DNA of 64,000 bases, taken from Candidatus Berkelbacteria bacterium (GTDB lineage: Bacteria; Patescibacteriota; UBA1384; JACPKC01). Shown piece after piece: positions 4,110 through 44,834 of this stretch. The position numbers and the translations under genes were made by a program. Each line of letters begins with the position of its first letter. The first letter of the stretch is position 1. The notes beneath the pieces are model-generated. The model was not told the DNA's origin, did not search any database, and saw nothing but the letters and a program-made list of their open reading frames with translations. Where the stretch lies: NCBI GenBank assembly GCA_016187225.1, contig JACPKC010000010.1, forward strand, positions 67,541-131,540. Reading direction: 5' to 3'.

Positions 4110-5242
4110 GCTTGTCGCGTTTCCGTGGTTCGAATCGCGACAAGGTTGATTCTTGGTTGCTTTTGAGCGTGCTCATGCTCGTCGGCGTCGGTTTGATCAT
4201 GATTTCATCAGCTTCAGTCGTGCTTTCATCAGAATACTTCGGCTCGAATTATGCCTATTCAAGCAAACAACTCCTACATTTTGGAATTGGTCTAGTCGCT
4301 CTGATTGTCGGTGTACTGGTTGACTATCGTCTATGGCAACGTTTAGCGCCGGCTCTTCTTGGCGTCATAATTCTGTTATTGCTTGCCACCCATATTCCTG
4401 GGTTGGCGCAAACTGCTCAAGGCGCCCAGCGCTGGATCGAACTTGGGCCGATCCAATTCCAGCCTTCGGAACTTGTCAAGATCTTTGCAATTCTTTACTT
4501 TGCCGCTTGGCTCGCGGCAAAAGGCAGTCATTTATCGAGTTTAACGCGAGGCCTTGTGCCATTTATCACCGTCCTCGGGGTGATTACTTTGCTTATTTTC
4601 GCTCAACCCGATGCTGGGACCGCGATGGTGATTCTATTTACGGTAACGACGATGTATTTTATTGCCGGTGCGCCTTGGATGCATTTGTTCTACGCAGGAA
4701 TTTTAGGCGGTAGTTTGTTTGGGCTCTTGATTCTTTCGGCGCCATATCGGCTTCAGCGGTTTTTGGTGTTTTTGAATCCCTCTGAAGAAACTCTCGGCGC
4801 CGCTTATCACATCAACCAGGCTCTCCTTGCGATCGGCGCCGGCGGCATGTTTGGCGTGGGTTTCGGCCAGAGTAAGCAGAAATTTCTCTACTTACCCGAA
4901 CCGCACACTGATTCAATTTTTGCAATTACGATTGAAGAACTTGGTTTTTTGCGGGCAATGTTAATCGTTGCTTTGCTTATTTTCGTAATGTTGCGGGGTT
5001 ATCAAATCGCCCGGGTGGTTCAGGATCCTTTTGGTCGTTACGTTGCCGTAGGGATAACAAGCTTGATTGCCATTCAGACATTTATCAATATCGGAGCCAT
5101 GTTAGGTCTAATGCCGCTGACGGGTGTCACCTTGCCATTTATCAGCTATGGCGGTTCCTCGTTAATCTCCTTGCTTTTTGGAGTTGGGATTCTACTTAAT
5201 ATCTCTCGACAAGCAGTTTTGATCCCGAAAGGAATGCATTAG
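4106..5242 (+). CDS. ftsW: SEDS-family peptidoglycan polymerase FtsW
   Basis: About 10 TM segments; SEDS motifs (GAMLGLMPLTGVTLPFISYGGSS); placed between murD and murG. Confidence 0.8.
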   Translation: MSLSRFRGSNRDKVDSWLLLSVLMLVGVGLIMISSASVVLSSEYFGSNYAYSSKQLLHFGIGLVALIVGVLVDYRLWQRLAPALLGVIILLLLATHIPGLAQTAQGAQRWIELGPIQFQPSELVKIFAILYFAAWLAAKGSHLSSLTRGLVPFITVLGVITLLIFAQPDAGTAMVILFTVTTMYFIAGAPWMHLFYAGILGGSLFGLLILSAPYRLQRFLVFLNPSEETLGAAYHINQALLAIGAGGMFGVGFGQSKQKFLYLPEPHTDSIFAITIEELGFLRAMLIVALLIFVMLRGYQIARVVQDPFGRYVAVGITSLIAIQTFINIGAMLGLMPLTGVTLPFISYGGSSLISLLFGVGILLNISRQAVLIPKGMH

Positions 5243-5259
5243 ATGTGTTCCTCAATAAC
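5242..5259. repeat. Copy d (reverse orientation) of the recurring start-proximal element (GATGTGTTCCTCAATAAC)
   Basis: 22/26 match to the reverse complement of the murG/radA upstream element; immediately follows the ftsW stop codon. Confidence 0.6.
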
Positions 5260-5377
5260 CTTTATGTCTAAATCGTCTCGAATTTGGCTAAACCAAACGC
5301 TTGCCTCGGTCAGTGTAACTCTCGTTACGTCTCTCTCGGCTTTCATTCGTTTCGCTCAAATTCAAACCAATTTCGAG

Positions 5378-5406
5378 CATGAAATTATTGGGGAACACAT
5401 CTAATG
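5378..5406. promoter_or_regulatory. Copy a of the 29-nt start-proximal element CATGAAATTATTGGGGAACACATCTAATG, ending in the murG start codon
   Basis: 27/29 identical to the block ending in the radA start codon; forms an inverted pair with copy d, bounding a ~160-nt unit. Confidence 0.7.
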
Positions 5407-6480
5407 AAGCGCATGATCGTCCTTGCCGGCGGGGGAACCGCCGGACACGTTTACCCGGTTTTAGAAGTGATACAGGCGTTGAGAAACTTAGACCCACTGC
5501 TAGATTTTGCTTATATCGGAAATCAGACTGGCCCCGAGAGTCAGTTGGTGCGAGCAGAGCAGGTGCCATTTTATGGCATTCCGGCCGAAAAACTTCGGCG
5601 TTATTGGGATTGGCGCACCTTTCTTCTACCCTTTCGAATTTTCAAAGGCACAGTCGAAGCCTTTGGGCTTTTAAGGATGTTAAAAGCGCAAGCGGTATTT
5701 TGTAAAGGCGGTTATGTGTGCGTGCCAGTTGCCTTAGCCGCTCGCTTCTTGCGTATTCCGATAATTTTACATGAGACGGATTCGATCATGGGACTTTCAA
5801 ATCGCTTAGTGGCGCCTTTTGCGCAAGCGGTTGCAATTAGTTTTCCACGGCCATCACTTATCGAAGCTGGTAAAAATACGCGCATCGTTTATACCGGTAA
5901 TCCAGTCCGACGAGAATTTTTTTCTCAAAAAAAGATCGAGCGTGTCGATGATCGTCCCTGCCTTGTCATAGTTGGTGGTTCGCAAGGCGCACATGCAATT
6001 AATTATTTCATTCAAGTGATTTTGCCCAAACTGCTCGAGCGCTATCGAGTGATTCATATTACGGGGCCCCAAGAGTTTTCAAATTTCCGTCAATTTACTC
6101 GCACAGATGTTTACGAGCCGGTTGCTTACGCCGAGAAAATCGTTGATCTTTTAGCGCAGGCGGATTTAGTTATCTCGCGCGCTGGTGGCACAATCTTCGA
6201 ATTGGCCGCTCTCGGCAAGCCGACAATCTTAATTCCAATTCCTAATTCAGCCAACAATCATCAGCGCGTGAATGCGGAAATTTTACTAAGTCGCGGGGCG
6301 GCGGTTATGCTGAATGAGCGTCAGCTTCAGCCCGCTCAACTTCTGAAAGAAATTACTACCCTTTTTCGAGATTCGATGCGTCGACAGAAGATGGGTGAAC
6401 GGATTCGAGAATTTGCTAGACCAAATGCCGCCCAAGATGTGGCGACTTTAATTTTAAACTCGATCGAGGACCGAGCATGA
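5404..6480 (+). CDS. murG: Undecaprenyldiphospho-muramoylpentapeptide beta-N-acetylglucosaminyltransferase MurG
   Basis: GGGTAGHVYP N-terminal glycine-rich loop; GT28 fold; dcw context. Confidence 0.85.
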   Translation: MKRMIVLAGGGTAGHVYPVLEVIQALRNLDPLLDFAYIGNQTGPESQLVRAEQVPFYGIPAEKLRRYWDWRTFLLPFRIFKGTVEAFGLLRMLKAQAVFCKGGYVCVPVALAARFLRIPIILHETDSIMGLSNRLVAPFAQAVAISFPRPSLIEAGKNTRIVYTGNPVRREFFSQKKIERVDDRPCLVIVGGSQGAHAINYFIQVILPKLLERYRVIHITGPQEFSNFRQFTRTDVYEPVAYAEKIVDLLAQADLVISRAGGTIFELAALGKPTILIPIPNSANNHQRVNAEILLSRGAAVMLNERQLQPAQLLKEITTLFRDSMRRQKMGERIREFARPNAAQDVATLILNSIEDRA

Positions 6481-13140: not shown

Positions 13141-13169
13141 CATAAAATTATTGGGGAACACATCGAATG
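13141..13169. promoter_or_regulatory. Copy b of the 29-nt start-proximal element CATAAAATTATTGGGGAACACATCGAATG, ending in the radA start codon
   Basis: 27/29 identity with copy a at the murG start. Confidence 0.7.
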
Positions 13170-17573: not shown

Positions 17574-18752
17574 ATGACGACTCCTTACTGGCGTCTTGCC
17601 GCCGATAAGATTTATCCAAGCAAAGATAGGCTCGTTCGTACGTTGAAGGCGCGTTCGTTAAGGATCTACTTTGGCGCCGATCCGACTGCGCCTTTTCTCC
17701 ATCTTGGGCACACTGTGCCGCTTAAAATTTTACGCGAACTGCAAGAGCAAGGTCATCGGGTCGTAGTCTTGTTTGGTGATTTTACAACTCTCATCGGAGA
17801 CCCGTCTGGTCGCGACCAGAGTCGACCGACACTTGACGAACAAGCGATTGCGACTAATCTTTTGACCTATCGCGAGCAAGTTCTAAAAATTCTTGACCCT
17901 AAGAAAACAGAGTTTCGTTCCAATAGCGAGTGGTATTTGAACCCCCGTTCAAGCGGCGCGCTTAGAGAATTCCTGCGTCTTGGCCTAAACTTTACCGCGG
18001 CTCAACTTTGGGAAAGAGATTTATTTCAGGAGCGTCAGAAAAAGGGCCAGCCAGTCTCTTTAACCGAATTTATTTATCCTGTGCTTCAAGCTTATGATTT
18101 CATCGCCTTGGAGGCCGATGCGCAAGTCGGTGGCACCGATCAAACCTTTAACATGCTAGCTGGCCGGGATTTGGCGAAAAAATTAGGTAAAGGAGAAAAG
18201 TTTGTCATCACGACCCAACTTTTGCGTGGCACAGACGGGCACAAGATGGGTAAATCGTTTAATAACTTCATCGCGCTTACAGATGCGCCAAATGAGATGT
18301 ATGGCAAACTGATGTCGGTTCGCGATGAACTTCTCCCAGAATATTTTATGCTTGCAGTTGGCATTGATCCAAATGCATCCAAAGTGCGAACACTAATCGA
18401 TGCGAATCCGCGCGAAGCGAAAGCAAAAATGGCCTACGAAGTTGTAGCTTTTTATCATGGCGCCGACAGAGCTTTGATGGCTCAAAAAGCCTTTGATCAG
18501 CAATTTCAAGCAAAAGAATTGCCAGGCGAGATTGAAAATCGGACACCATCGGTAACCGGGAATGAAAAGCTTGCCTTTTACTTGGTTGACCTTGACTTAG
18601 CGACATCTAAAACCGAAGCAGGTCGCCTCATTGAACAGGGTGGTGTCAAAGTCGATGGCGCTGTTATTGCCGATCTGCACGCGCTGATCACGCCGCATGA
18701 CGGCATGTTGATTCAGGTTGGCAAACGACACTTTGTCCGCATAAAATTATAG
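17574..18752 (+). CDS. tyrS: Tyrosyl-tRNA synthetase, with C-terminal S4 domain
   Basis: HLGH and KMGKS class I motifs; S4-like LIEQGGVKVDG. Start trimmed from ORF-track 17253 to the in-frame ATG after the PBP gene start. Confidence 0.85.
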   Translation: MTTPYWRLAADKIYPSKDRLVRTLKARSLRIYFGADPTAPFLHLGHTVPLKILRELQEQGHRVVVLFGDFTTLIGDPSGRDQSRPTLDEQAIATNLLTYREQVLKILDPKKTEFRSNSEWYLNPRSSGALREFLRLGLNFTAAQLWERDLFQERQKKGQPVSLTEFIYPVLQAYDFIALEADAQVGGTDQTFNMLAGRDLAKKLGKGEKFVITTQLLRGTDGHKMGKSFNNFIALTDAPNEMYGKLMSVRDELLPEYFMLAVGIDPNASKVRTLIDANPREAKAKMAYEVVAFYHGADRALMAQKAFDQQFQAKELPGEIENRTPSVTGNEKLAFYLVDLDLATSKTEAGRLIEQGGVKVDGAVIADLHALITPHDGMLIQVGKRHFVRIKL

Positions 18753-18762
18753 TTGCGAGATC

Positions 18763-20451
18763 ATGACCCACTTTGAAAATCTTATCCATCGAGTTCGTTC
18801 ATTGCTCAGTGGTGAATGCCAGATCACATTCGAGATTCCAAGCAATCAATCGGCATGGTTTTCGGTGCCAATTTTCCACTTGGCTCAAAAGCGCAATCAG
18901 TCAGTCGCCGAAGTTGCCAAGACGATCGTCTCTAGACTGAACTCTCTCTCTGGAGTGCAAGCGAAAGTCGTCGGCGGTTATGTCAATCTTGCGCCAACTT
19001 CAAGTTTCGCGAGGCAAATCTTGGCTGAACTGTCGACAAGTAAATATCAGCCAGAATCTCGCACCGAAACAATCGTCATTGATTATTCAAGCCCGAACGC
19101 CGCCAAACCGATGAGTATTGGCCATTTACGTTCGACTGTGATTGGGGATGCGCTCAAGCGCATTTACCAGTTTCTTGGTTATCAAGTAATTGGAGTAAAT
19201 CATCTTGGCGATTGGGGCACGCAATTTGGCAAACTCCTTGTGGCTTATAAACGCCAGTTTGGCGATCTCACTCCACGGCCAGAGTTGACAGTTAAAGATT
19301 TACTTAATCTTTATGTGCAATTTCATACTGACGCCGACCAGGATCGGGCGCTTGCTGACGGGGCCCGGGCGATGTTTTTTCAATTGGAACATGAACGGCG
19401 TGCGCAAGGACAGGCGAGTGAATTGGTCGCGCTTTGGCGGCAATTGGTGGATCTCTCTAAGCAGGAACTTCAGAGTGTTTATCGGCGTTTGGGGGTGGAA
19501 TTTTCTGACGAGGCGATTAAAGGTGAGAGTGAATATGATCTCGAAGTTAAGCAAGTAAGAAAACAAGCTCAAGAGATGGGGATTTTAGAAACAAGCGAGG
19601 GCGCTCAAATTATTCAAGTTGGAGATGCTTGTCCGCCTTTGATTTTTGAAAAAACTGATGGTTCCACTACCTACGGCGCCCGTGATCTGGGCGCGCTTCT
19701 TTATCGCTTAAAGACATATCGTCCAGCGCAAGTTCTCTATGTGGTCGGAAGCGAGCAGTCACTTCACTTTCAGCAGATTTTTGAGGCGGCGACTTCACTT
19801 GATCTTCTAGGTGTGAGAACGAATAAAACTATCCTTAAACATGTTAAATTTGGCCTTGTTCGTCTACCCGAAGGCAAGCTAAGCACGCGTCAGGGTCGCG
19901 TCATTTTACTCGAAGATGTTTTGAATGAGGCGGTGAAACGGGCGCAGGCGGTGATAGAAGCGCGAGTCGAAGGGCAACCAGGGGACGAGCGCATTAGCGA
20001 AGCAGTTGGAATTGGCGCCCTTAAGTATTTTGATCTCATGCATAATTGTCGCCACGATATCCTTTTCAATTGGGAACGCATGCTCTCACTCAAAGGCAAC
20101 TCGGCGCCGTATCTTCAATATTCCTACACGCGCGCCGTCCAGATTTTAGCTAAGGAGAGCGACATCGAGCAAGAAGTAGGCGTCGTTCCGGTTGAACTTA
20201 TGCCTTATATTCGCACCTTGGCTAGATTCCCATTGATTATTGAGCAAGTTGCCGAGCAGTCCACGCCGCATACCCTTGCTCAATATCTAGGTGAAGTCGC
20301 GGCGGATTTTCATGCCTTTTATGAACGCTTCCCAGTTTTGCAGGCGAGCGCCAGTGATAAGACAGTGCGCTTAGCCTACGTTCGGGCAACACAAAAAATT
20401 CTTAAGATTGGCCTTAATCTTCTGGGTATCGAAGCGCTTGAAAGGATGTAA
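18763..20451 (+). CDS. argS: Arginyl-tRNA synthetase
   Basis: SSPNAAKPMSIGHLRS (HIGH-region variant); C-terminal DALR anticodon-binding region; 562 aa. Confidence 0.85.
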   Translation: MTHFENLIHRVRSLLSGECQITFEIPSNQSAWFSVPIFHLAQKRNQSVAEVAKTIVSRLNSLSGVQAKVVGGYVNLAPTSSFARQILAELSTSKYQPESRTETIVIDYSSPNAAKPMSIGHLRSTVIGDALKRIYQFLGYQVIGVNHLGDWGTQFGKLLVAYKRQFGDLTPRPELTVKDLLNLYVQFHTDADQDRALADGARAMFFQLEHERRAQGQASELVALWRQLVDLSKQELQSVYRRLGVEFSDEAIKGESEYDLEVKQVRKQAQEMGILETSEGAQIIQVGDACPPLIFEKTDGSTTYGARDLGALLYRLKTYRPAQVLYVVGSEQSLHFQQIFEAATSLDLLGVRTNKTILKHVKFGLVRLPEGKLSTRQGRVILLEDVLNEAVKRAQAVIEARVEGQPGDERISEAVGIGALKYFDLMHNCRHDILFNWERMLSLKGNSAPYLQYSYTRAVQILAKESDIEQEVGVVPVELMPYIRTLARFPLIIEQVAEQSTPHTLAQYLGEVAADFHAFYERFPVLQASASDKTVRLAYVRATQKILKIGLNLLGIEALERM

Positions 20452-24427: not shown

Positions 24428-25084
24428 ATGTTGCCCCAAGCTTTTCAGATTTTACTTAAGCGCAGAGTTATGAGCCAGACCACGCTTTTGAGCGGTCAAA
24501 CTCCTGCTAATCAACTCATGGTCGCTCGCAACATCGCTTCTATACTTAAAATCGCTCCAGTTGACACGCTTCTTGTTTTATCGCCGCCAAAAATCGCTGA
24601 CCTGCGTTCAATTCTAGAACGTCTCCAATTTAAGCCCTACCAATCAGAATATGTGCTGGCGCTTTTGATCTCGGTCGATCAATGGTCATCTGAAACAGCC
24701 ACGGCCCTGTTGAAAATTCTTGAAGAGCCGCCACCCCAGGCGCGCCTCGTTTTGTTTGCGCAGGACGAAGAGAGCGTTTTACCTACAATTCGATCACGAG
24801 CAAGCAGATTCAGGCTTCCTGTAACTTTTACGTCTCAAGAGCAGTCTTTGTCGCCCCTTGAAACACTTTTAAGCAAACCATTATCTTATCAAATGATGCA
24901 GACTGCTAAATATGCCGAGGAGTATTCAATTCCAGAAATTTTGAATTCTTGGCTTGTGCAGACTTCAAGCCGATCCCTTCAAGTTTATTTACTTACTTCT
25001 CTAACTGAAGTTGGAACACATCCGGTCAATAAACGCCTCTTTCTTGATTCATTACTCGTCAATGTTCCAGGAAGAAGAGTATGA
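24428..25084 (+). CDS. DNA polymerase III delta-prime-like clamp-loader subunit, truncated (no obvious Walker A)
   Basis: KILEEPPP and TIRSRASRF boxes typical of HolB/delta-prime sensor-2 regions; only about 200-218 aa. Confidence 0.45.
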   Translation: MLPQAFQILLKRRVMSQTTLLSGQTPANQLMVARNIASILKIAPVDTLLVLSPPKIADLRSILERLQFKPYQSEYVLALLISVDQWSSETATALLKILEEPPPQARLVLFAQDEESVLPTIRSRASRFRLPVTFTSQEQSLSPLETLLSKPLSYQMMQTAKYAEEYSIPEILNSWLVQTSSRSLQVYLLTSLTEVGTHPVNKRLFLDSLLVNVPGRRV

Positions 25085-27181: not shown

Positions 27182-27256
27182 TGGAGCCACCTGTCGGATT
27201 TGAACCGACGACCTTCACTTTACAAAAGTGTTGCTCTACCGCTGAGCTAAGGTGGC
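27182..27256 (-). tRNA. tRNA-Thr (anticodon TGT)
   Basis: Acceptor GCCACCT/AGGTGGC, loop TTTGTAA, T-stem GTCGG/CCGAC; A27:A43 mismatch in the anticodon stem makes the register slightly ambiguous. Confidence 0.65.
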
Positions 27257-27326
27257 AGGCAATTCTCCAGAAAAATAATACTAGCAAGGTAGAGAGGAAT
27301 ACTCAATGATGGGGGAGCTTATTTTA

Positions 27327-27391
27327 TACACTCTACGAACGTTAAATGATTAGAGAGTGTCTAGATACTCATTTAACGTTCGTAGAGTGTA
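27327..27391. promoter_or_regulatory. Perfect 23-bp inverted repeat (TACACTCTACGAACGTTAAATGA / TCATTTAACGTTCGTAGAGTGTA) with 19-nt spacer, carrying symmetric extended -10 boxes for divergent transcription
   Basis: The right arm runs into TGTATAAT followed by TTGACA-17-TATATT upstream of the + gene; the reverse complement of the left arm runs into TGTATAAAAT, which faces the minus-strand tRNA operon. Confidence 0.55.
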
Positions 27392-27454
27392 TAATTGACA
27401 GAAGTGGAGTATTCTGATATATTGCTAATGTACGAAGTGTTCTATGGAGGGAAA

Positions 27455-27961: not shown

Positions 27962-28370
27962 TGATAACCGTTATTGAGGAATTTGAAGAACTGATTGACC
28001 ATGGTCACGAGCATTTTGCGTGGATAGAACGCTTTATTGCGATCTATCTTTTTCATTTTGTGATCAATGTTCTAGCCTAAGGGGCTATCCCGAACAAGAC
28101 AGTTTTTCTTCGTTTCAGGTAACCGGCTGAAAACTATTATTCTTCGACTCTCCGTTTTACGGCATTTTTTGAATGTCTCAAACAAGAGCCAGAAGTATAA
28201 ACCCGTCAGTGCGGGCAGATTTTGTTATCGCGAGTGAACCGTAGCGATCCTGGTAGATTGTCGCGGTTGCAACCTCGTAATTTTCAGGATTGCTTCGTCG
28301 TCCTTGGCTCCTCGCAATGACGACAATGAGAAAGCCCTGATAAATAGGGAAACAGGGGATTGAAGGTGGC

Positions 28371-33146: not shown

Positions 33147-33809
33147 TTGAGGAGGGGCGTGTTAAGTTTCCAAAATGATGGCATTCAACCGGCTAAGACG
33201 CCGGCAAATGGAGCGGCAGGCCCAGCGCCTGTTCAACCAGCCAAATCTGCTCTTGACCCAAGTGTGGTAGCAATCAACCCGGAATCAAACGATTCGCTAA
33301 TCGCAATTTTTGCGGGTTTAAGTGTTGCTCTTAGTCTCCTCGGCGGTGTTGCGGCCTCATTTTTGCGGGCCCAAGCGAAAGGAGAAGCTGAAGCCTCAAG
33401 TCAAAAAGTGACGAGCCTTCAGCAGGAATTCGCCTCGGGCGATCTTAAAACTATGCTCGATAAGGCTGGTTTAGTTGAAAAACAGCTCGAGGTCACAAAA
33501 GAATTCTCTGCCGCCCTGCCTTGGCCAAAGCTCTTAAAAGCTCTAGCCGACAAAGTCCCTGGATCGGTTAAATTTACGGCCAATTCTTTTGAAACTGACA
33601 AGTCATTAAGAATTGACGGCTCGGCAAATAATTACGCCGAGGTAGCGCGACTCATGACCGCCATCGAGTCGACGGATGAGTTTTCGGAGATTGCGCTGAC
33701 GAGCGCAACTCTTTCTGAATCTGTCGACGGTAATTCGATTACTTTTTCAATCACGGCCAAATATGCGGCGCCAGTCGCTGGAGGGGATGATGGCGGAAAT
33801 ACAAACTGA
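33147..33809 (+). CDS. PilN-like type IV pilus assembly protein (bitopic)
   Basis: About 50-aa cytoplasmic N-terminus, one TM, periplasmic domain with PilN-like topology; sits upstream of a pilO-like gene and pilB. Confidence 0.45.
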   Translation: MRRGVLSFQNDGIQPAKTPANGAAGPAPVQPAKSALDPSVVAINPESNDSLIAIFAGLSVALSLLGGVAASFLRAQAKGEAEASSQKVTSLQQEFASGDLKTMLDKAGLVEKQLEVTKEFSAALPWPKLLKALADKVPGSVKFTANSFETDKSLRIDGSANNYAEVARLMTAIESTDEFSEIALTSATLSESVDGNSITFSITAKYAAPVAGGDDGGNTN

Positions 33810-34389
33810 ATCAACTAAACATAACACTTTGTTGTGGCTAATTTTAGGCGTGATTGGTTCAGCCGCGGCATTCTATTTATATACCTTGCCTCAAATTCGC
33901 GAGCTCAAGCTTTTGCGCACGCAGTCGGCGACGCTTGAGGCTGATCTTTCAAGCTTAAACGAAAAGAAAACCACTGTTGTTAAATTAAACGACGATCTTA
34001 AAAGGAGCACTGCGCTGACTGACAAACTTGCTCTGGCTGTGCCAGAGGATGAGGCTATCGATGAGCTCATTACTTCACTTGAAAAGATTGTTGAAAAAGC
34101 GGGCATTACTTTGTTGTCGGTTCAGCCGGCAAGCAATGTTGAAACAGGCAAGACAACCGCTATGCTTTCAACCCGAGGCTCATATTCCGGCACAACACTA
34201 TTTCTTGAATTTTTAGAAAAGAACCTTCGTCCGATTGGCGTCAATGATCTTGCACTCACAGCGACGTCGGATATTCAAGGCGCGTCGCTGATTAGCGCCT
34301 CATTCGAGATTACTCCTGCCCAGATTGCCAAGGCCGCACCGGCGGCAGAGACGTCCGCTCAAGACACAGAGACAAAAGGAGCCCAATGA
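33787..34389 (+). CDS. PilO-like type IV pilus assembly protein
   Basis: Short N-terminus, TM (LLWLILGVIGSAAAFYLY), coiled coil (LKLLRTQSATLEADLSSLNEKK), C-terminal alpha/beta domain; start chosen after the upstream stop overlap. Confidence 0.45.
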   Translation: MMAEIQTESTKHNTLLWLILGVIGSAAAFYLYTLPQIRELKLLRTQSATLEADLSSLNEKKTTVVKLNDDLKRSTALTDKLALAVPEDEAIDELITSLEKIVEKAGITLLSVQPASNVETGKTTAMLSTRGSYSGTTLFLEFLEKNLRPIGVNDLALTATSDIQGASLISASFEITPAQIAKAAPAAETSAQDTETKGAQ

Positions 34390-34637
34390 ATCGGCCCATA
34401 GTAATTGGCATCGGTTTAGGAGTGAATCTCATTCTTGCGGGTGTGACACTTTGGCTGATTATGCGCGCCGTGCCCATGACGTCGGATATTGAAAGCGCCC
34501 GGACAAAAGTTGAACCTGCGCCAAAATTTACGATCAAAGATATCGAGGCGCTTAAATTGGATGAAAAAACCCTGAATGGTGACTTGCCGATCTCGATTGA
34601 TGGAGTTGGGCGTGTCGATCCATACGCGGGGATTTAG
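34386..34637 (+). CDS. Small membrane protein (83 aa) within the pilus operon
   Basis: ATGA overlap with the upstream gene; one TM; could be a PilP-like accessory protein. Confidence 0.3.
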   Translation: MNRPIVIGIGLGVNLILAGVTLWLIMRAVPMTSDIESARTKVEPAPKFTIKDIEALKLDEKTLNGDLPISIDGVGRVDPYAGI

Positions 34638-34642
34638 CAATT

Positions 34643-37153
34643 ATGGTGAACCCTCAAGCCCAAAATAATTTGGAGATTCTCAAAAAAACGGCCGCTGAAC
34701 TCGGCCTTGAGCTTGTCGCACTCACCCAGGACACTCCTGAACAATCCGCCCTGGCTCTGGTGCCCGAAGCATTGGCGCGTCAATATCAGTTACTGCCTTT
34801 AACTCTTAAAGAGAAATCACTCACTCTCGTCTTAACTGATCCAGCGCTCTTGACAAAACCAGCGCCCAAATTTCTGCAGGAACTCAAGCAAAACGGGTAT
34901 CATCTGCGTTTGCAACTCACATCCAGCGAGGATTTTCAAACTGCTTTGGGAGCTTATCGACCACAAGTCAATGGCCAGAGGCCACTATCCAGAGTGAATA
35001 ACGCTCAAAGTCAGAACATGCAAGCGAAAACAACTGTGCAGGCAGGTCCTCAACCAGTAACTAGTATACCCCCAGTCGCTTCACCCGCACTTTCGGTGCC
35101 AGCCTCGGTGCATTCGGCGCAAGTCGAGTTAGTTATATTGAAAAGCAGAGAAGTGCCTTTGAACGTTTTAAACAAATTCCCCCAGGACGTGGCGAAAAAG
35201 TATCAGATGGTTGTGTTTGAACTTTCAGCCGACGGTCAGGAGGCATCCGTTGCCGCCCTTAAACCTAACGACCGTCGAATTCGAGAAATTCTCAAGTTTA
35301 TTGAGGCGCGAAACAAGGTTCGAATTCATTTATTCTCGGCGAGTAAAGAGGATATTGAAGGAGTATTGAAGCAATATGACACAGAGCACAGAGAAGACAA
35401 AAAACCAGCCCAAGCTCCAACGCCAATTTCTTCGATCTCTACTCCGCCTGCGCAGAAGTCAGCCATGGTTTCGGCGCCACTAAAGCCGAGTTTTGCGCCG
35501 ACAATTCTCACTCCTTCAGTGAAACCTAATTCTGTGTCGCGCATTCCACCCAAACCCGTTTCAGCGCCGCTCCCAGTTGTCCCCAAAAGACCTATCTTGT
35601 CGCCTTTGCCGACGCCGCTGGCGGCGCGGCCAGTTACGCCCATTGGGCCCAAAATCGGCGGCCTTACACCAGCTCAACCAATTGCGCCCGAGACGCCAAA
35701 TAGTTTGGGCACGACCGATCTTAAATCATACCAAGAAGCAATCATTCGTAATTCTGCCACTCTTCGAGATCCAAGTACGCCGGTTCCAACGGTCGAAGTT
35801 GGTGATTTACAACTCCCAACCAATCAACTTGGCGTGGGCGAGTTGCCGGAAGGACAAGCGCCGATTATGATAACCAATATCGGCGCAGAAGATAAAAATC
35901 TCGACATAGTTCTCGGCACGACCGTTGAAACTTCTGAACAACTTGAGCAAATTCTTAAATCTGGCATGGTGCCAAAAATTGTCGCCGCGATCGTGTTTTA
36001 CGCCACTGCCGTGGCCGCATCCGATATTCACATGGAGGCTGGTGAGAAAGAGGTTCGGATTCGCTTTCGTGTTGATGGCACTTTACAGGAAATTATCAAA
36101 TTGCCGGTTCAACTTTTGGCGCCGATTGTGTCGCGCATCAAAATTTTAGCCAAACTCAAAATCGATGAATCGCGCATCCCGCAAGATGGCCGTTTCGGGG
36201 TGATTGTGCAAAAGCGGGAAATTGATCTGCGAGTTTCAACCCTGCCAACAGTTTTCGGCGAAAAAGTGGTTATGCGGATTCTCGATAAAGAAAAAAGTTT
36301 GAAAAAACTCACTGAATTGGGTATTCAGGGTACTAATCTCGCTCGAATCCAGTCAGCAATCAAAGACCCCTTTGGTATCATTTTAGTGACTGGTCCGACC
36401 GGTTCAGGCAAGACCACAACACTTTACGCGATGTTAACTGAACTCAATACCGCAAGTGTCAACATTGTTACTCTCGAAGACCCGGTCGAGTATCAGCTTG
36501 ATGGCATCAATCAGACCCAGGTCAAGCCAAAAATCGGCTTTGGTTTTGCCGATGGTTTACGTTCAATTCTGCGGCAAGACCCGAACATTATTATGGTTGG
36601 CGAGATTCGCGATGGAGAGACTGCCGGCCTGGCAACTCAAGCCGCGTTGACCGGTCACCTGGTGCTTTCAACTTTGCATACCAACGACTCATCTGGAGCG
36701 CTTCCCCGGATGATCGATATGCACGTTGAACCATTCCTCCTAGCTTCTTCGGTGAATATCGTGATTGCCCAGCGTTTGATTCGTCGCTTGTGCTCAAAGT
36801 GTCGCCAGCCAGCCTCAATTCCGGCCGAAACTCTCACTCGCATTCAGCAGGAGCTCGCCTCGGCATTCGCTCCTGAACTTAAATCAGCGGCGAGTAAGCA
36901 ACTTTCTTTCTTCGGCCCAAATCAAAAGGGCTGCAATGTCTGTCATAATGGTTATAAGGGTCGGGTCGGGATTTACGAAGTTCTAATTACCAGTCCGGCT
37001 ATCGCCGATCTCGTTCTTGCTAAATCCGCCTCGTCCAAAATTGCGGCTAAAGCTCACGAAGAGGGGATGATCACACTTAGAGAAGACGGCATCCTTAAAG
37101 CCATGCAAGGTGAAACATCGCTTGACGAAGTCATTCAAGCCACCAGCGAATAG
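34643..37153 (+). CDS. pilB: Type IV pilus assembly ATPase PilB (GspE family) with duplicated N-terminal domains and a Pro-rich linker
   Basis: Walker A VTGPTGSGKTTTLYAML; Asp/His boxes; tetracysteine CSKC...CNVCHNGYKGR; two T2SE_N-like segments. Confidence 0.85.
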   Translation: MVNPQAQNNLEILKKTAAELGLELVALTQDTPEQSALALVPEALARQYQLLPLTLKEKSLTLVLTDPALLTKPAPKFLQELKQNGYHLRLQLTSSEDFQTALGAYRPQVNGQRPLSRVNNAQSQNMQAKTTVQAGPQPVTSIPPVASPALSVPASVHSAQVELVILKSREVPLNVLNKFPQDVAKKYQMVVFELSADGQEASVAALKPNDRRIREILKFIEARNKVRIHLFSASKEDIEGVLKQYDTEHREDKKPAQAPTPISSISTPPAQKSAMVSAPLKPSFAPTILTPSVKPNSVSRIPPKPVSAPLPVVPKRPILSPLPTPLAARPVTPIGPKIGGLTPAQPIAPETPNSLGTTDLKSYQEAIIRNSATLRDPSTPVPTVEVGDLQLPTNQLGVGELPEGQAPIMITNIGAEDKNLDIVLGTTVETSEQLEQILKSGMVPKIVAAIVFYATAVAASDIHMEAGEKEVRIRFRVDGTLQEIIKLPVQLLAPIVSRIKILAKLKIDESRIPQDGRFGVIVQKREIDLRVSTLPTVFGEKVVMRILDKEKSLKKLTELGIQGTNLARIQSAIKDPFGIILVTGPTGSGKTTTLYAMLTELNTASVNIVTLEDPVEYQLDGINQTQVKPKIGFGFADGLRSILRQDPNIIMVGEIRDGETAGLATQAALTGHLVLSTLHTNDSSGALPRMIDMHVEPFLLASSVNIVIAQRLIRRLCSKCRQPASIPAETLTRIQQELASAFAPELKSAASKQLSFFGPNQKGCNVCHNGYKGRVGIYEVLITSPAIADLVLAKSASSKIAAKAHEEGMITLREDGILKAMQGETSLDEVIQATSE

Positions 37154-37161
37154 GAGTTCCG

Positions 37162-38268
37162 ATGGTTGAGACGCAATCCACGCAAGCCATGTTGGGCGCC
37201 AACGATCGCTCACTTTCACCACATTTAAGCGAGATGCTTAAATTCGCAATTGAACATAGCGCTTCTGACTTACACATTCAAATCGGCGTGCCGCCAGTTA
37301 TCCGCATCGACGGCAAACTTCGCTCGGTGCCAGATCAGCCCCTTTATACTCAAGAATCGGCGGCCGCCGACGTGCTTTCGAGTCTAGGGACCGTGCAACG
37401 CGAACGCTTTGCGACCGAACGCGAACTCGACTTTTCTTTTACCTTTGAAACGATGCGCTTACGTTGCAATGTTTACTATGAAAAAGGCAACATCGTCGGC
37501 GCTTACCGATTAATTCCAACTCAAATTCGAACTGTTGAACAACTTGGCTTGCCGCCGGTTTTGGTTCAGTTAACCGAACACAAACAAGGACTCGTGATTA
37601 TTACTGGCCCAACTGGCCATGGCAAATCCACCACGCTGGCGGCTTTAATCGACCATATTAATCACAATCGCTCCGAGCACATTATTACAATTGAGGATCC
37701 AATCGAGTACATTTTCGCAAATCAGAAAAGCGTCATCTCCCAACGTGAAGTGGGCTTCGATACCAAAACTTTCGCCAATGCCTTGCGCGCTTCCATGCGC
37801 CAAGACCCGAATGTAATTTTAGTCGGTGAGATGCGCGATTTGGAAACGATGGCTTCAGCGTTAACGCTCGCTGAAACTGGTCATTTAGTTTTCACAACTT
37901 TGCACACCAACTCCTCGGCCGAAACCGCTGATCGCATTATCGATGTCTTTCCGCCGCATCAACAACAGCAGATTCGCTCTCAACTTGCCTCGGTTTTATT
38001 GGGCGTCATTTCTCAACGTCTCCTGCCTAAAATCAATGGCGGGCGAGTTGCGGCGGCAGAAATTATGCTGGGCACAACCGCCGTTCGAAATACCATTCGC
38101 GAGGGCAAGACTCATCAGCTCGACAATATTATTCTCACCGGTTCAGCCGAGGGTATGATTAATCTCGATGCTGTGCTTGCCGGTCTCGTTAATAAGGGGG
38201 AAGTTACAATTGACGATGCGATCAACTGGGCGCGCGATTCTAAACAACTCAAGATTAATATCTTTTAG
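37162..38268 (+). CDS. pilT: Twitching-motility retraction ATPase PilT
   Basis: Walker A ITGPTGHGKSTT; PilT signature AIRNTIREGKTHQL; 368 aa, no zinc-finger. Confidence 0.9.
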   Translation: MVETQSTQAMLGANDRSLSPHLSEMLKFAIEHSASDLHIQIGVPPVIRIDGKLRSVPDQPLYTQESAAADVLSSLGTVQRERFATERELDFSFTFETMRLRCNVYYEKGNIVGAYRLIPTQIRTVEQLGLPPVLVQLTEHKQGLVIITGPTGHGKSTTLAALIDHINHNRSEHIITIEDPIEYIFANQKSVISQREVGFDTKTFANALRASMRQDPNVILVGEMRDLETMASALTLAETGHLVFTTLHTNSSAETADRIIDVFPPHQQQQIRSQLASVLLGVISQRLLPKINGGRVAAAEIMLGTTAVRNTIREGKTHQLDNIILTGSAEGMINLDAVLAGLVNKGEVTIDDAINWARDSKQLKINIF

Positions 38269-38270
38269 TT

Positions 38271-39353
38271 ATGCCCGAGCCCGTAAAAAAACCCGCCCTC
38301 AAGTTCGAGATTGATATTCCTTTTTTGAATAATGTTTCAGTGAGAGAGAAGTCTTTTTTAGCGCGCCAGCTGGCCACGATGCTTGCAAGCGGTTTGGCGC
38401 TTAATCGTGCCGTGGCTATTCTCGTAGCTCAAACTCAAAACAAAACCCTTAAAACGGCGCTTCAGGGTATTGAAACAGATCTCGAGGGCGGCTTGCCGTT
38501 TTCGGGCGCAATTGCCAAACATCCAAAGATTTTTGACCGAGTTTTCGTGAACGTGGTAATTTCGGGCGAAAGCGTGGGGCGCTTGGCGGATGTGCTCAAT
38601 CAACTTGCCGACCAGCTTGAAAAAGATTCCGGCTTCATGAATCGAGTTAAAGGCGCTCTGGCTTATCCAGCCTTTGTCTTTGTGGCGATGATCGTTGTCG
38701 GCGCAATTACGATGGTTTACATCATTCCGCAACTTCAAAGTGTCTTCGAGGAAGCCGGCGCCGAATTGCCATTTTTAACTCGCATGATTATCGCTATAAG
38801 TCATTTTCTACAAAACTATTGGTGGTTAATTATTATTTTTGTCGTCGTAGGTTTAGCTGTTGGTCGCACATATTTTCGTTCCAAAGCGGGCGAGCGTCTC
38901 TGGGGGCTGATTCAACTTCACCTTCCAGGGCATCTTGGCTACGATATCTATATGGCCAGGTTTAATCGCACCCTGGGAATGCTCGTGCAAGCCGGCACAC
39001 CAATTATCGAAGCAATCAGTGTCACGGCGTCGGTGATGGATAATCTGCTTTATCGCGAGTATTTGGCGGCGGCGGCCGATCAAGTTAAACGCGGCGTCCC
39101 GCTTTCCGTGCCTCTTCAAAAAACCGCGCTTTTTCCGCTCATTGTTGGCCAGATGATCGCAGTTGGCGAGCAAACAGGTCGCCTCGATCAGATTCTCTTA
39201 AAACTCGCCGAGTATTATGAAGAGGAAGCAGATAGTAAAATCAAGCAATTAAGCAGTTTAATTGAGCCGATTGTAATCGTTTTGATCGGTGTTGGAGTGG
39301 GGATTCTTGTCTATGCGATCCTGGTGCCAATCTATAATATCGCACAGTTCTAA
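38271..39353 (+). CDS. pilC: Type IV pilus inner-membrane platform protein PilC (GspF family)
   Basis: Two T2SSF repeats; three TM segments; follows pilB-pilT. Confidence 0.85.
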   Translation: MPEPVKKPALKFEIDIPFLNNVSVREKSFLARQLATMLASGLALNRAVAILVAQTQNKTLKTALQGIETDLEGGLPFSGAIAKHPKIFDRVFVNVVISGESVGRLADVLNQLADQLEKDSGFMNRVKGALAYPAFVFVAMIVVGAITMVYIIPQLQSVFEEAGAELPFLTRMIIAISHFLQNYWWLIIIFVVVGLAVGRTYFRSKAGERLWGLIQLHLPGHLGYDIYMARFNRTLGMLVQAGTPIIEAISVTASVMDNLLYREYLAAAADQVKRGVPLSVPLQKTALFPLIVGQMIAVGEQTGRLDQILLKLAEYYEEEADSKIKQLSSLIEPIVIVLIGVGVGILVYAILVPIYNIAQF

Positions 39354-39870
39354 GGGTTTTACGCTTTTAGAGCTCATGATCGTTATCACGATCGGCGGTA
39401 TTTTAATTAGTGTTGTCGGCATGAATTTTTCGTCAACGCGAAGGCAGGCGCGGGACGCGGTGCGGAAAAGTGACGTTGAGGCGATTCAAACGGCGCTCGA
39501 GCTTTATTACAACGCTCACAATGAGTTTCCCAATTTCAATACCTGGGCAACGAGCAATAACTCGATCGGATCTGGCAATTGGGCCTCGCTTCAGCAGGAT
39601 TTAAGCCCATATTTAAGTTCAATGCCGACCGATCCGGTGAATGCGAGTGGAACTACGCCTGAAAATGGCGGGCTGGCTTACGGCTATCTATCCACAGCCG
39701 CCTATGGTTGCACTGGACAATGGTATGTTCTTGTTTATACACTTGAAGTTGAGAACGATCCCGCTTTAACTCGAAGCCCAGGGATTTCTACTTGCAACAG
39801 TCAAACGCTTAACGATAGCAACCTTGCAAGCGCTCCTTGGACGTTTTGGGTCGGTGTCTCTGGGAGTTAA
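39313..39870 (+). CDS. Prepilin-type protein (pilin/pseudopilin) with class III signal peptide
   Basis: KG|FTLLELMIVITIGGIL prepilin cleavage/methylation motif; start uncertain (overlaps the pilC 3' end). Confidence 0.6.
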   Translation: MRSWCQSIISHSSKGFTLLELMIVITIGGILISVVGMNFSSTRRQARDAVRKSDVEAIQTALELYYNAHNEFPNFNTWATSNNSIGSGNWASLQQDLSPYLSSMPTDPVNASGTTPENGGLAYGYLSTAAYGCTGQWYVLVYTLEVENDPALTRSPGISTCNSQTLNDSNLASAPWTFWVGVSGS

Positions 39871-39970
39871 AATATGCTAGAGTAATCAAAAGGTATTTAT
39901 CGATCGAAGTTGAGAACGTCTTGGCTCTATCGGACAAAAATTATCACTCACAATAATAAAAGGAGGCAGA

Positions 39971-40465
39971 ATGAATTTACATAGAAGTAAACAACGAGGT
40001 TTCACGCTCCTCGAGCTCCTCGTTGTGGTTGCGATTATCGCGATTTTAGCCGCGGTGATTGTGGCAAACTTAAACTCGGCGCGAAGTAAGGCAAATGATG
40101 CCAAGGTGAAGCAGGATCTCAATGGCGTCGATCAGGCACTTGCAGTTGCGACCGCTGACCCATCGGTTCTTGGATCGGCGCCTTTAAACGCCTTAAATAA
40201 TGGCGGCGGCGTTTTAGTTGATATCGACACCGAAACGGCGCTAACAGTTAATGGTTATCTTAAGACTTTTCCAATTCCACCATCGGGTATAACGCAATAT
40301 AACTATCGTAGCAACTATTCCAATGGGATTTTCGGCTATGTGTTGTGGGGTACACTCTCAACAAAAACTGGCGCAAACAATGACTGCTGGGTTATAAACA
40401 CCGGTAACGCTTTTCAGTCGAACGGCTGTCTTGCCGCCGATACAACTGGTGTAACACTTCCGTAA
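39971..40465 (+). CDS. pilA: Type IV major pilin (PilA-like)
   Basis: Strong RBS AAAGGAGG; leader MNLHRSKQRG|FTLLELLVVVAIIAILAAV; C-terminal Cys pair; stands alone with its own RBS. Confidence 0.75.
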   Translation: MNLHRSKQRGFTLLELLVVVAIIAILAAVIVANLNSARSKANDAKVKQDLNGVDQALAVATADPSVLGSAPLNALNNGGGVLVDIDTETALTVNGYLKTFPIPPSGITQYNYRSNYSNGIFGYVLWGTLSTKTGANNDCWVINTGNAFQSNGCLAADTTGVTLP

Positions 40466-40478
40466 TTTAAGAATTTTC

Positions 40479-41273
40479 ATGTCGGAGTTTGAGCAAGCGG
40501 TCAATTTTTGGCCGCTTGCGGCGATTTTTGGTCTGTTTTGGGGTTCATTCTTGAATGTTCTTGCTTTGCGCTGGGGTTCAAAGTATCGAGGCTTGACACT
40601 CGCAGAACGGAGTCACTGCCCAAAGTGCCAAAAAATTTTAAATTGGCACGAGCTTCTGCCCCTAATAAGTCTTATACTTTTACACGGCCGTTGCCGAGGC
40701 TGTCGAAAAAAAATTGACTTGCGCTATCCAGGCGTTGAAATTTTAACCGCAGTTTTTCTTGGGGGAATAGTTTTTAAGTATGGGTTGTCAGCTCAAGCCT
40801 TAACTCTGTCAGTTGCCGGGAGTTTGCTTTTGATCGCGGCGCTAGTTGATTTTGAAACTCAAATTTTACCCGATTCTTTAGTTGCAAGCGCTTTCGTTTT
40901 AACTCTCCTTGTAACACTTTTACTGGGTCAATCAGCGCTTGTGAATCTAGCGTTTCCAGTTTCCAGTTGGTGGCGGGGCGCCTTAACCGGCGGGTTGATC
41001 ATCGGCGCGATTTTTCTTCTTACGCGTGGGAAGGGGATTGGTTTTGGCGATGTTAAATTAGCGACCGTGCTCGGATCAGTAGTCGGTATGAGCGGCGCCC
41101 TACTTATGTTGTGGAGCGCGTTTATTTTGGGCAGTCTTGTGGGCGGAACACTTCTACTTCGTCGCCGCGCAACCTTAAAGACCGCTCTTCCATTCGGCCC
41201 CTTTTTATTTGCTGGCTGGCTGATCGCGCTTTTTTGGGGTCGTGACATCATTGCATGGTATACTCAATTATAA
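40479..41273 (+). CDS. pilD: Prepilin peptidase PilD (A24 family)
   Basis: N-terminal CPKC...CRGC zinc-finger; multi-TM with the conserved Asp-containing GFGDVKL box. Confidence 0.85.
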   Translation: MSEFEQAVNFWPLAAIFGLFWGSFLNVLALRWGSKYRGLTLAERSHCPKCQKILNWHELLPLISLILLHGRCRGCRKKIDLRYPGVEILTAVFLGGIVFKYGLSAQALTLSVAGSLLLIAALVDFETQILPDSLVASAFVLTLLVTLLLGQSALVNLAFPVSSWWRGALTGGLIIGAIFLLTRGKGIGFGDVKLATVLGSVVGMSGALLMLWSAFILGSLVGGTLLLRRRATLKTALPFGPFLFAGWLIALFWGRDIIAWYTQL

Positions 41274-41292
41274 TATTGACGGGTAATAAGTT

Positions 41293-41796
41293 ATGCGTAA
41301 AAACGATACTAATCAGGGTTTCTCGCTTATCGAACTCTTAATCGTCATGGTTATTATTGGTATGTTGGCAACCGTCGTTACTATTTCGTCTTCAGCCTCA
41401 AGGGCGCAGGCGCGCGATAGTCGCCGCAAATCCGATGTCCAGACCGTGGCCGCGGCGCTTGAAACTTATCGAGTTGAGAACAAAGTTTACCCAACCGAGA
41501 ATAACTTCTCCGGAAGCTGGGACGACCTCAAAGTCGTGCTTTTCCCCGATTTTATTTCCGAATGGCCCGACGATCCACAAGGCAATGCCAGTCAATATGG
41601 CGAGGGGTATGTGTACGCAACCGACTCGCTTGGTTCGGCTTACGCGCTTGACGTCACCTTAGAAGGGGATGAAGACGTAACCTTGCAACCCAACGAAATC
41701 GACGAAACTTTGACAGTTAATCCAGATGAAGATTTTTTCGTCACAGGTATCTATAGTTATGGCGGCGACACCCATTACCGCTTCAGCGGCCGGTAA
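41293..41796 (+). CDS. Minor pilin / pseudopilin (prepilin-type N-terminus)
   Basis: NQG|FSLIELLIVMVIIGML motif. Confidence 0.65.
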   Translation: MRKNDTNQGFSLIELLIVMVIIGMLATVVTISSSASRAQARDSRRKSDVQTVAAALETYRVENKVYPTENNFSGSWDDLKVVLFPDFISEWPDDPQGNASQYGEGYVYATDSLGSAYALDVTLEGDEDVTLQPNEIDETLTVNPDEDFFVTGIYSYGGDTHYRFSGR

Positions 41797-42283: not shown

Positions 42284-42284
42284 A

Positions 42285-43492: not shown

Positions 43493-43644
43493 ACACAGTT
43501 GATATCCGCGTATCATTACGAGGAGCCAAGGGCGACGGAGTAATCTGGTAAAGATTACCGCATAGTCGAAAAGTCTCGACAAATTTGAGCAGAAACATGT
43601 ACACTCGGCGGAGTTTTGTAATCTTTCCAAGGAGGTAAGTTGTT

Positions 43645-44778: not shown

Positions 44779-44809
44779 ATGAGTGGCGGGGCAGGTCGCT
44801 CAATTTTCC

Positions 44810-44834
44810 AGGCCCCACAAGGGCCTTTTCTTTT
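44810..44834 (+). terminator. Intrinsic terminator (AGGCCC-CACAA-GGGCCT followed by TTTTCTTTT)
   Basis: GC hairpin plus U-tract directly after the 43645..44778 gene. Confidence 0.5.

Follow-up and report, generated by a model that had tools for sequence, protein, structure and literature searches.

A probable MITE-like palindromic element at the ftsW-murG junction of a Candidatus Berkelbacteria genome

Bacterial MITEs are A+T-rich sequences of <200 bp with terminal inverted repeats, 5'-TA-3' termini and a target-site duplication, and they form long stem-loops (PMC2229807, PMC10969869). The Correia elements of Neisseria (CREE/NEMIS) are ~100-200 bp long, possess terminal inverted repeats of ~24-26 bp, TA termini and a TA duplication, and are often found directly upstream of genes, being co-transcribed with their neighbours as long hairpins (PMC2229807, PMC10969869). 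The repeat described here, from a 64,000-nt stretch of a Candidatus Berkelbacteria genome (hereafter the window), is similar to them in all these respects. They differ in that Correia elements have been shown to contain promoters and an IHF site and to be cleaved by RNase III, and in that the Berkelbacteria family is located in stop/start junctions inside operons and is traversed by an ORF. Correia elements are not known outside Neisseria, and a sequence relation is therefore not expected. RUP of Streptococcus pneumoniae and other MITEs derived from IS630/Tc1-mariner are small and non-coding as well, have inverted ends and insert into TA with TA duplication; the mobility of RUP-type MITEs has been attributed to a transposase that acts in trans and recognises the same ends (PMC2229807). 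Nevertheless, the parent of RUP (IS630-Spn1) is known, whereas the Berkelbacteria family is linked to IS630 through its TA flank alone, and RUP contains stops in all six frames, whereas one frame is open in the copies seen here. The Rickettsia palindromic elements (RPE) are likewise palindromic repeats (100-150 bp) of a reduced genome, whose survival depends on in-frame insertion compatible with translation (PMC10969869). In contrast to RPEs, which are intragenic and form part of a protein, the copies seen here are intergenic and lie exactly at a stop/start boundary, although, to judge from two further ORF products (P0124 and P0125), copies of the Berkelbacteria type may also occur within longer ORFs. 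The REP/REPIN sequences mobilised by RAYT occur as inverted hairpin doublets and as lone singlets regarded as remnants, a pattern resembling the one full unit and two lone arms of the window. However, REP itself is a short palindrome with a conserved GTAG, whereas a single arm folds here at 0 kcal/mol; unlike in a REPIN, the spacer is conserved and 110 nt long, and the TA flanks are no REPIN feature.

The window carries four copies of a block of ~25 nt (Table 1). A preliminary description had placed this block at the starts of murG, radA and pth in both orientations, with two inverted copies bounding a 160-nt unit between ftsW and murG, and both statements were confirmed. The frequency check against shuffles gave three matches to the 18-mer core (≤3 mismatches) in the 64-kb window versus 0.04 expected, and three were reached in none of 100 shuffles; the fourth arm copy, which has an indel, was detected by fuzzy search rather than by the 18-mer count. 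A "partial copy" reported in the holB-like gene turned out to be only a 10-mer (GGAACACATC, 25013-25022), treated as chance with ~0.1 matches expected per 10-mer. A motif shared to the left of the two left arms (ATCCCG..GGRATG) was dropped (p = 0.2 in shuffles).

Table 1. Features of the full-length element and of the lone arms, with their positions in the 64-kb window.
Feature	Position	Strand	Remarks
Full-length palindromic element, 160 nt (GATGTG...CACATC)	5242-5401	+	Inverted arms; hairpin on both strands; homologues; empty sites
Left flanking TA, putative target-site duplication	5240-5241	.	Forms the ftsW stop TAG (5240-5242) with the first G of the element
Left arm, terminal inverted repeat, GATGTGTTCCTCAATAACCTTTATG	5242-5266	+	ATG of the annotated 46-codon ORF at its end
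Right arm, CATGAAATTATTGGGGAACACATC	5378-5401	+	Followed by TA, then murG ATG (5404-5406)
Right flanking TA	5402-5403	.	Completed to TAA, the stop of the internal ORF, by the first base of the murG ATG (TAATG)
46-codon ORF + TAA, hypothetical protein HYW32_03125 (MBI2589984.1, NCBI), P0121	5264-5404	+	Runs through the right arm
Lone right arm, CATAAAATTATTGGGGAACACATC	13141-13164	+	Followed by GA, then radA ATG (13167-13169)
Lone left arm, GATGTGTTCCC-AATAATTTTATG	63647-63669	+	Preceded by TA (63645-63646); inner ATG is the pth start

The unit between ftsW and murG is palindromic as a whole. Its left arm is the reverse complement of the repeat, with two mismatches in the 18-mer core; the repeat finder returned the inverted pair as arms of 50 nt (5237-5286 and 5357-5406, 74% complementary), and the terminal stretches 5237-5258 and 5385-5406 are complementary at 21 of 22 positions. 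The inner imperfect inverted repeats noted in the preliminary description are present as well (CTCGAATTTGG at 5277-5287 and CCAATTTCGAG at 5367-5377). On both strands the stretch 5237-5406 folds as a single rod, with RNA folding energies of -59.4 kcal/mol for the plus strand (z -7.7) and -66 kcal/mol for the minus strand (z -7.1) and a z-score of -5.7 for the DNA fold. The murG ATG pairs with the last codon of ftsW at the base of the -59 kcal/mol stem. Each of the four single arms gives 0 kcal/mol, which is no better than shuffles, and has no self-complementarity. The GC content of the element is 41%, versus 48% for the window, and it encodes no transposase, its sole ORF having 46 codons. A conserved inner block of the element reads GTTTCGCTCANATNCNANCCAATTNCG.

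The flanks can be read as CAT-TA-[element]-TA-ATG. Removal of the element together with one TA gives ...GGA ATG CAT TAATG AAG..., i.e., a normal overlap of ftsW and murG. In four related Berkelbacteria (L136, L138, L148, L149), ftsW and murG overlap by 4-8 nt and the unit is absent, with no spacer between the genes; FtsW is 376-379 aa long in these relatives versus 378 aa here. Furthermore, sodA and radA are adjacent also in L149, with a spacer of 6 nt and no arm, versus 34 nt here. The genomes with these empty sites are only distantly related (MurG 52-56% identical), and the comparison shows a derived insertion but not a recent one. We propose that the full copy inserted into the TA of the TAATG stop/start overlap of ftsW and murG and duplicated this TA. 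The first base of the element would have converted the left TA to a TAG stop for ftsW, and the right TA would have left the native murG ATG directly behind the element. Note that a TA duplication comprises just 2 bp, which is weak evidence taken alone and could be a coincidence. Given its placement within this junction, the element would be co-transcribed in the dcw operon as a long hairpin.

A second full-length copy is present on a 161-kb contig of the same genome. It was recognised by its ORF product P0122 (HYW32_01570, MBI2589696.1), which is 83% identical to P0121. The documented set thus comprises two full copies (P0121, P0122) plus two lone arms. In addition, two independent Logan assemblies end inside the element (5351-5369), within the stretch encoding identical residues in both copies (F27-H39, nt 5342-5380), which fits a repeat collapse.

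Homologous elements were recovered via their ORFs, by a profile search of 1.84 billion proteins that yielded ORFs read through related elements. DNA of three of them (L140, L141 and L152, from two other genomes) aligned over the full length with 69-71% nucleotide identity, although the hosts are very distant (MurC 39% identical; GC 54-58% versus 48%). Such an identity, ~70% over the full length between such hosts, requires either a recent horizontal spread or functional constraint. The element is 199 nt long in L140 and 160 nt in L141, and its GC content is 52% versus 54% for the host in L140 and 50% versus 57.5% in L141. The arm sequences vary between the genomes with complementarity kept, eight pairs being changed on both sides (compensatory changes), and the middle of the element consists of unrelated sequence in L140. 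The right ends of all three read ...GTC TA ATG, the ATG being a start codon. In L140 the left end is TCA TA|G, again a stop, with TA on both sides as in the window copy; of the flanks in L141 and L152, only the right one is TA, the left one being TC.

In the light of these results, the block (29 nt in the preliminary description) is probably the terminal inverted repeat of a non-autonomous palindromic MITE-like element, 160 nt long here. This reading follows from the TA flanks, the palindromic nature of the whole unit, the empty sites in four relatives, the second copy and the homologues beside unrelated genes. The element shares with bacterial MITEs the small size, inverted repeats, TA termini, presence/absence at orthologous sites, stable stem-loop and A+T-richness. 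A MITE-like mobile unit was one of three candidates proposed earlier, and is the only one that fits the TA flanks, the palindrome, the empty sites and the additional copies.

Could the element instead be a structured cis-regulatory RNA of cell-envelope operons, i.e., a conserved hairpin controlling downstream glycosyltransferase or mur genes? All three contexts for which DNA is available are in fact envelope-related (between ftsW and murG here, 3' of murC in L152, 5' of a GT4 glycosyltransferase gene in L140), and the structure is conserved with compensatory changes. However, the palindrome of the antisense strand is as good or better in all three genomes folded, as for a DNA palindrome rather than a sense-strand RNA, and the stems are near-perfect over the full length. 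The TA flanks, the second genomic copy and the absence from four relatives also speak against such an RNA. Among the Rfam 15 covariance models, only tRNAs matched the window at the gathering score, and 5200-5450 gave chance-level scores (E >2). We consider a regulatory RNA very improbable.

The internal ORF spans the distance between the arms, as described before, but comprises 46 codons and a TAA (5264-5404) rather than 45 codons (5265-5402). Immediately behind the ftsW TAG there is an in-frame ATG (5243), and the ORF would extend to this position if that ATG were used. This is the one frame open across the element; the other five contain 2-6 stops. Counted by codon position, the differences between the ORFs amount to 19/12/12, 16/11/11 and 19/14/11, so third positions are not enriched in changes, and no Pfam domain was detected in the product, which is hydrophobic in its middle. 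As judged from these comparisons, the ORF is without a protein-coding signature and the element is non-coding. Its annotation in NCBI and the hydrophobic middle would suit a true gene for a small membrane protein in the ftsW-murG spacer, and a well-conserved 24-nt repeat near three gene starts would suit operator sites of a global transcription factor, one of the candidates of the preliminary description. But the hydrophobic middle is replaced by unrelated sequence in L140; moreover, the arm is not palindromic, does not fold and changes between genomes together with its partner arm, to which it stays complementary, and the only common theme of the flanking genes is their position at operon junctions. 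Both proposals are hardly credible.

A further idea, which would add to the MITE-like reading rather than replace it, is a relay of translational coupling. Ribosomes terminating at the ftsW UAG would restart at the AUG at 5243 or 5264, translate a meaningless ORF and thereby melt the hairpin; having terminated at UAAUG, they would begin anew on murG. In another version, the ftsW stop would simply be brought opposite the murG start by the base of the hairpin. In agreement with this, the window copy has TAG|ATG at 5240-5245, TAATG at 5402-5406 and, from the one to the other, a single open frame. The ORF of L141 and L152 runs from an ATGA overlap with the murC stop to TAATG; in L140 an in-frame ATG follows the upstream TAG by 21 nt and the ORF again ends in TAATG. 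The frame stays open although the amino-acid sequence is not conserved. Furthermore, free initiation at murG should be hard with its ATG paired to the last ftsW codon at the stem base. On the other hand, ascertainment is strong, since all relatives were found through their ORFs and the window copy is the only unbiased case, for which the chance of an open frame is ~0.04-0.07. Besides, the frames of P0124 and P0125 extend beyond the element without a stop at TAATG. We therefore regard the relay as conceivable but doubtful.

The lone arms at radA and pth also need to be accounted for. The radA arm occupies most of the 34-nt sodA-radA spacer and is followed by GA. The pth arm, the reverse complement of the repeat with a 1-nt deletion (GGG for GGGG), is flanked by TA and fills the 25-nt spacer between ybaB and pth, the upstream gene encoding YbaB/EbfC. 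The pth ATG (63667-63669) is complementary to the inner CAT of this arm, and the Pfam match of Pth begins at residue 3. The earlier suggestion that either end of the repeat can supply a start codon applies to the inner end, since the inner ATG is part of the element and serves pth and the internal ORF. It fails for the outer end, where the ATGs of murG and radA stand 2 nt beyond the repeat and correspond in position to the start codons of relatives. The start codons of murG and radA are part of the target and not of the repeat, and only the pth ATG is within the arm. In terms of a MITE-like element, the two single arms would be remnants of earlier insertions at the same type of site, directly 5' of a start codon, left by deletion. 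However, the inner ends of both lone arms are nearly identical, straight after CAT/ATG, which is not predicted by random deletion and speaks against this reading. The apparent reuse at start codons would result from the sites where such elements can land and survive in a compact genome, together with the ATG at the inner end of every arm of the family.

The preliminary description also considered a portable promoter and translation-initiation cassette. In such a cassette, each arm would offer an outward-facing -10-like box (CATAAAAT), with GGGG as a weak Shine-Dalgarno sequence, and would be kept to drive murG, radA and pth. The right arms of radA, L140, L141 and L152 have a conserved TAAAAT or TAAAGT, promoters are present in the ends of the Correia elements of Neisseria, which lie immediately 5' of genes (PMC10969869), and some use is hinted at by the fact that a compact genome keeps lone arms in its very short spacers. 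Nevertheless, the promoter scan revealed no sigma-70-type site at murG, radA or pth; in the murG arm the box reads TGAAAT, its critical second base being G, and no -35 box lies within a usable distance. As a Shine-Dalgarno sequence GGGGAA is poor and poorly placed, with 10 nt between the GGGG and the ATG (L141 has CCGAGC in place of the GGGG), whereas other genes of the window have GGAGG at 4-8 nt; the pth orientation lacks any purine-rich stretch. A terminator scan of the three sites gave only a weak terminator-like stem at the pth arm (9 pairs, 3 of them G-C). A cassette as the primary nature of the repeat is thus improbable, although the arms may possibly have acquired a role in promoting transcription or translation initiation.

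If the block is indeed a MITE end, movement would have relied on a TA-targeting transposase supplied in trans. No transposase family matched the proteins of the window, several of which have no Pfam match, and no full-length parent element with matching ends was found among these proteins or in the plasmid, phage and viral collections; blastn of the unit against the plasmid and phage collections gave no match, and the two conserved inner blocks gave 0 matches and 6 partial chance matches in viral contigs. An nhmmer profile of the element revealed no further copies in ~0.85 Mb of loci, including ~80 kb from relatives. The exact 18-mer had 11 single matches in the genome contig collection, all in unrelated taxa and about the number expected by chance. 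In metagenome contigs the pattern ATTATTGG(N0-1)GAACACATC was dominated by a conserved coding stretch (...YGNAIIGNTS...), and none of the matches listed had the CATAAA flank. The most promising match, longer by GAATGG (L019/L130), is intragenic (...LDYWEHIEW...) and was discarded as a coincidence.

We assume a new MITE family of a known kind, possibly with a role in preserving translational coupling. A bolder version would be a family specialised for operon stop/start junctions in compact genomes of the Candidate Phyla Radiation, which lands in the TA of TAATG-type overlaps, regenerates the upstream stop, leaves the downstream ATG and keeps translational coupling through a content-free pass-through ORF or through stop and start held at the hairpin base; we regard this version as speculative and rather unlikely. 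Descriptions of mobile repeats are rare for the Candidate Phyla Radiation with its tiny, gene-dense genomes, and our literature search found no report of MITEs in them. The element breaks short-read assemblies, yields spurious "hypothetical protein" calls (HYW32_03125, HYW32_01570) and could be used as a strain marker. The locus implies that a 160-nt hairpin is tolerated inside the essential cell-wall (dcw) operon if it is located exactly on a gene boundary. If the pass-through ORF does maintain coupling, the family would be a neat case of selfish DNA adapted to operon architecture, and such "translationally transparent" DNA would explain the spread of the element between very distant hosts inside essential operons.

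The 29-nt block is present at murG, radA and pth and on the ftsW side, as the preliminary description had it, in two forward and two reverse copies (see the table below), and we take it to be a terminal inverted repeat belonging to a new MITE-like family. With 3 or fewer mismatches, its 18-mer core has 3 matches in the window (0.04 expected) and is above chance there; a fuzzy search of the window recovered a fourth block copy once an indel was allowed. The "partial copy" reported for the holB-like gene is a 10-mer only and is best taken as chance. The exact 18-mer has 11 scattered matches in the genome_contigs collection, which is chance level. Among the matches listed by a metagenome scan for the block, an unrelated conserved coding stretch dominated, and one tempting metagenome match was a coding coincidence.

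Copies of the 29-nt block in the window and two related elements in other genomes
Feature	Position	Strand	Remark
Forward copy, CATGAAATTATTGGGGAACACATC	5378-5401	+	ends 2 nt before murG ATG (5404)
Forward copy, CATAAAATTATTGGGGAACACATC	13141-13164	+	ends 2 nt before radA ATG (13167)
Reverse copy	5242-5266		overlaps ftsW TAG stop
Reverse copy	63647-63669		1-nt deletion; pth ATG inside copy
Element of locus L152	551-2076 region, GCA_900206355.1		directly after murC
Element of locus L140	4829-6168 region, GCA_964485965.1		directly before GT4 glycosyltransferase

The inverted repeat between ftsW and murG exceeds the 29-nt ends (50-nt arms, repeat finder), and 5237-5406 folds as a single rod (+ strand RNA, -59.4 kcal/mol, z -7.7; - strand RNA, -66 kcal/mol, z -7.1; as DNA, z -5.7). 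At its base, the stem pairs CAT TAG, the final codon of ftsW plus its stop, with the murG start region (CTA ATG). A lone arm, when folded, has no structure of its own.

Directly outside GATGTG...CACATC there is a TA on each side. Removal of the element plus one TA leaves ...GGA ATG CAT TAATG AAG..., a common one-base stop/start overlap. In four related Berkelbacteria loci the two genes run into each other by 4-8 nt, leaving no spacer; FtsW there has 376-379 aa (378 aa in the window), and a total of ~80 kb of DNA from these relatives contained no element. Furthermore, the sodA-radA spacer is 6 nt in L149, a relative with the same adjacency, vs 34 nt in the window, most of it the lone arm. These orthologous sites, in distant relatives, would fit the suggested mobility at some time in the past and mark the 160-nt unit (5242-5401) as an insertion. 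The window MurG is 100% identical to an NCBI protein from a Candidatus Berkelbacteria (CPR/Patescibacteria) assembly, and the MurG ranking next reaches only 52-56% identity.

A search with the product of the element's ORF (HYW32_03125) found, besides itself, HYW32_01570 (83% identical), which another contig of this genome (161 kb) encodes. At 5351-5369, inside the element, contigs end in each of two independent Logan assemblies of the organism (SRR12113424, SRR12113420), and the contig ends (L001/L002 start, L134/L135 end) share only a 19-nt overlap. The break zone lies inside the stretch where both genomic copies encode identical residues, as expected of a collapsed repeat, and we infer such a collapse, involving the second copy, as the origin of the breaks.

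When 1.84 billion representative proteins were searched with a profile, four further ORFs read through related sequences came to light. The DNA comparison of the family covers three loci (L140, L141, L152), whose elements share 69-71% nucleotide identity with the window copy in alignments that span the whole element. Their hosts are very distant from the window organism (MurC 39% identical; GC 54-58%, window 48%). The relatives' arms (GACCTGTCCCGAAATAA... / ...TTATTCCGGGGCAGGTC) are unlike the window arms and still mutually complementary, with both sides changed in 8 of the base pairs between the arms. All three right ends read ...GTC TA ATG, the ATG being the next gene's start; on the left, TCA TA|G in L140 is the upstream gene's stop, and the flank is TC, not TA, in L141 and L152. 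The middle of the L140 element is longer and unrelated, and both sub-terminal blocks are kept; the L140 contig also carries a Bro-N domain gene. The context is envelope-related in 3/3 loci (window, L152, L140), which could be coincidence or reflect a preference for operons with tight coupling.

Bacterial MITEs are <200 bp and A+T-rich, with terminal inverted repeats, TA termini and duplication, and a long stem-loop (PMC2229807; PMC10969869). The element matches them in size, inverted ends, TA termini, A+T richness and stem-loop, hence the MITE-like reading; the MITE-like mobile unit, one of the explanations proposed at the outset, is favoured by TA flanks, palindrome, empty sites, second copy and distant relatives. 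The closest analogues include the Correia elements of Neisseria and RUP, a TA-duplicating MITE. No transposase was found among the window proteins, and plasmid, phage and viral collections gave no match to the element.

The window contains other repeats. A second short intergenic family, TCATTGCGAGGAGCCAAGGACGACGAAGCAATCCTG (28281-28320, -) and TCATTACGAGGAGCCAAGGGCGACGGAGTAATCTGG (43513-43552, +; 40 nt, 83% identical), forms small hairpins, ATTGC...GCAAT or ATTAC...GTAAT, the difference being compensatory. A near-perfect hairpin at 27324-27394 (29-nt arms, 97% complementary, 13-nt loop; repeat finder), between tRNA-Thr (27182-27256, -) and an ORF starting at 27395, could be a bidirectional terminator or operator. 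Three diverged direct repeats (61479-61899; ~64 nt, 75% identical, 165-192 nt apart) lie inside an ORF without Pfam match (61400-62230). A type IV pilus cluster (33147-43492) encodes PilN, PilO, two T2SSE ATPases, a PilC-like T2SSF protein, several N-methyl pilins and a prepilin peptidase; next comes an RNase H / RVT_3 domain gene (44783-45304).

A portable promoter and translation-initiation cassette, also proposed, finds no backing as what the element primarily is: a consensus scan detected no sigma-70-type promoter at the murG, radA and pth sites, and L141 does not keep GGGGAA, which is placed 10 nt from the ATG (other genes of the window have GGAGG 4-8 nt from the start). TATAAT occurs 6 nt before the murD ATG (2733; region 2690-2735), and CATAAAATTAT, a string common to this upstream region of argS and the element arm, 12 nt before the argS ATG (18763; region 18720-18765); these two may be promoters of leaderless or very short-leader mRNAs. 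The element has no Rfam match. Its antisense RNA is more stable than the sense RNA in 3/3 genomes (window 5242-5401, -58 vs -50.6 kcal/mol; L140 4831-5029, -87.7 vs -71.8; L141 327-486, -74 vs -45.3), a pattern that speaks against a sense-strand RNA structure under selection; its cause may be mutation bias or a strand-specific function.

The internal ORF exists, but spans 5264-5404 (46 codons) rather than 5265-5402 (45 codons); an in-frame ATG (5243) directly follows the ftsW stop, and the TAA overlaps the murG ATG. A domain search of its product found none. Differences within the family (19/12/12, 16/11/11 and 19/14/11 by codon position) are not concentrated at third positions, so the encoded sequence appears unconstrained and the ORF not to be a protein gene. 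That the frame nevertheless stays open would fit a pass-through ORF by which translational coupling is relayed past the hairpin to murG. Each copy for which DNA was obtained has one open frame that reaches TAATG from the upstream stop or close to it; this frame starts at TAG|ATG in the window, in an ATGA shared with the end of murC in L141 and L152, and at an in-frame ATG 21 nt past the upstream stop in L140. We consider such a relay rather unlikely, however. Because the relatives were all detected via their ORFs, the window copy is the sole unbiased one, and its frame would be open by chance with a probability of ~0.04-0.07; in P0124 and P0125, two products read through related elements, the frame continues beyond the element.

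For the MITE-like family, the single arms before radA and at pth would most simply be remnants of past insertions. The radA arm has right-end geometry (arm, 2 nt, ATG) and the pth arm left-end geometry (TA, arm), with pth in place of the internal ORF; both end right after CAT/ATG, which would not be expected of random deletion. The link to start codons could have two sources, namely insertion or survival at a TA immediately 5' of an ATG, and the ATG at the inner end of every arm. This insertion geometry is interesting and unproven. The block itself is real and now explained: it belongs to a new family within a known kind of element, and for the host lineage such repeats are hardly described in the literature.
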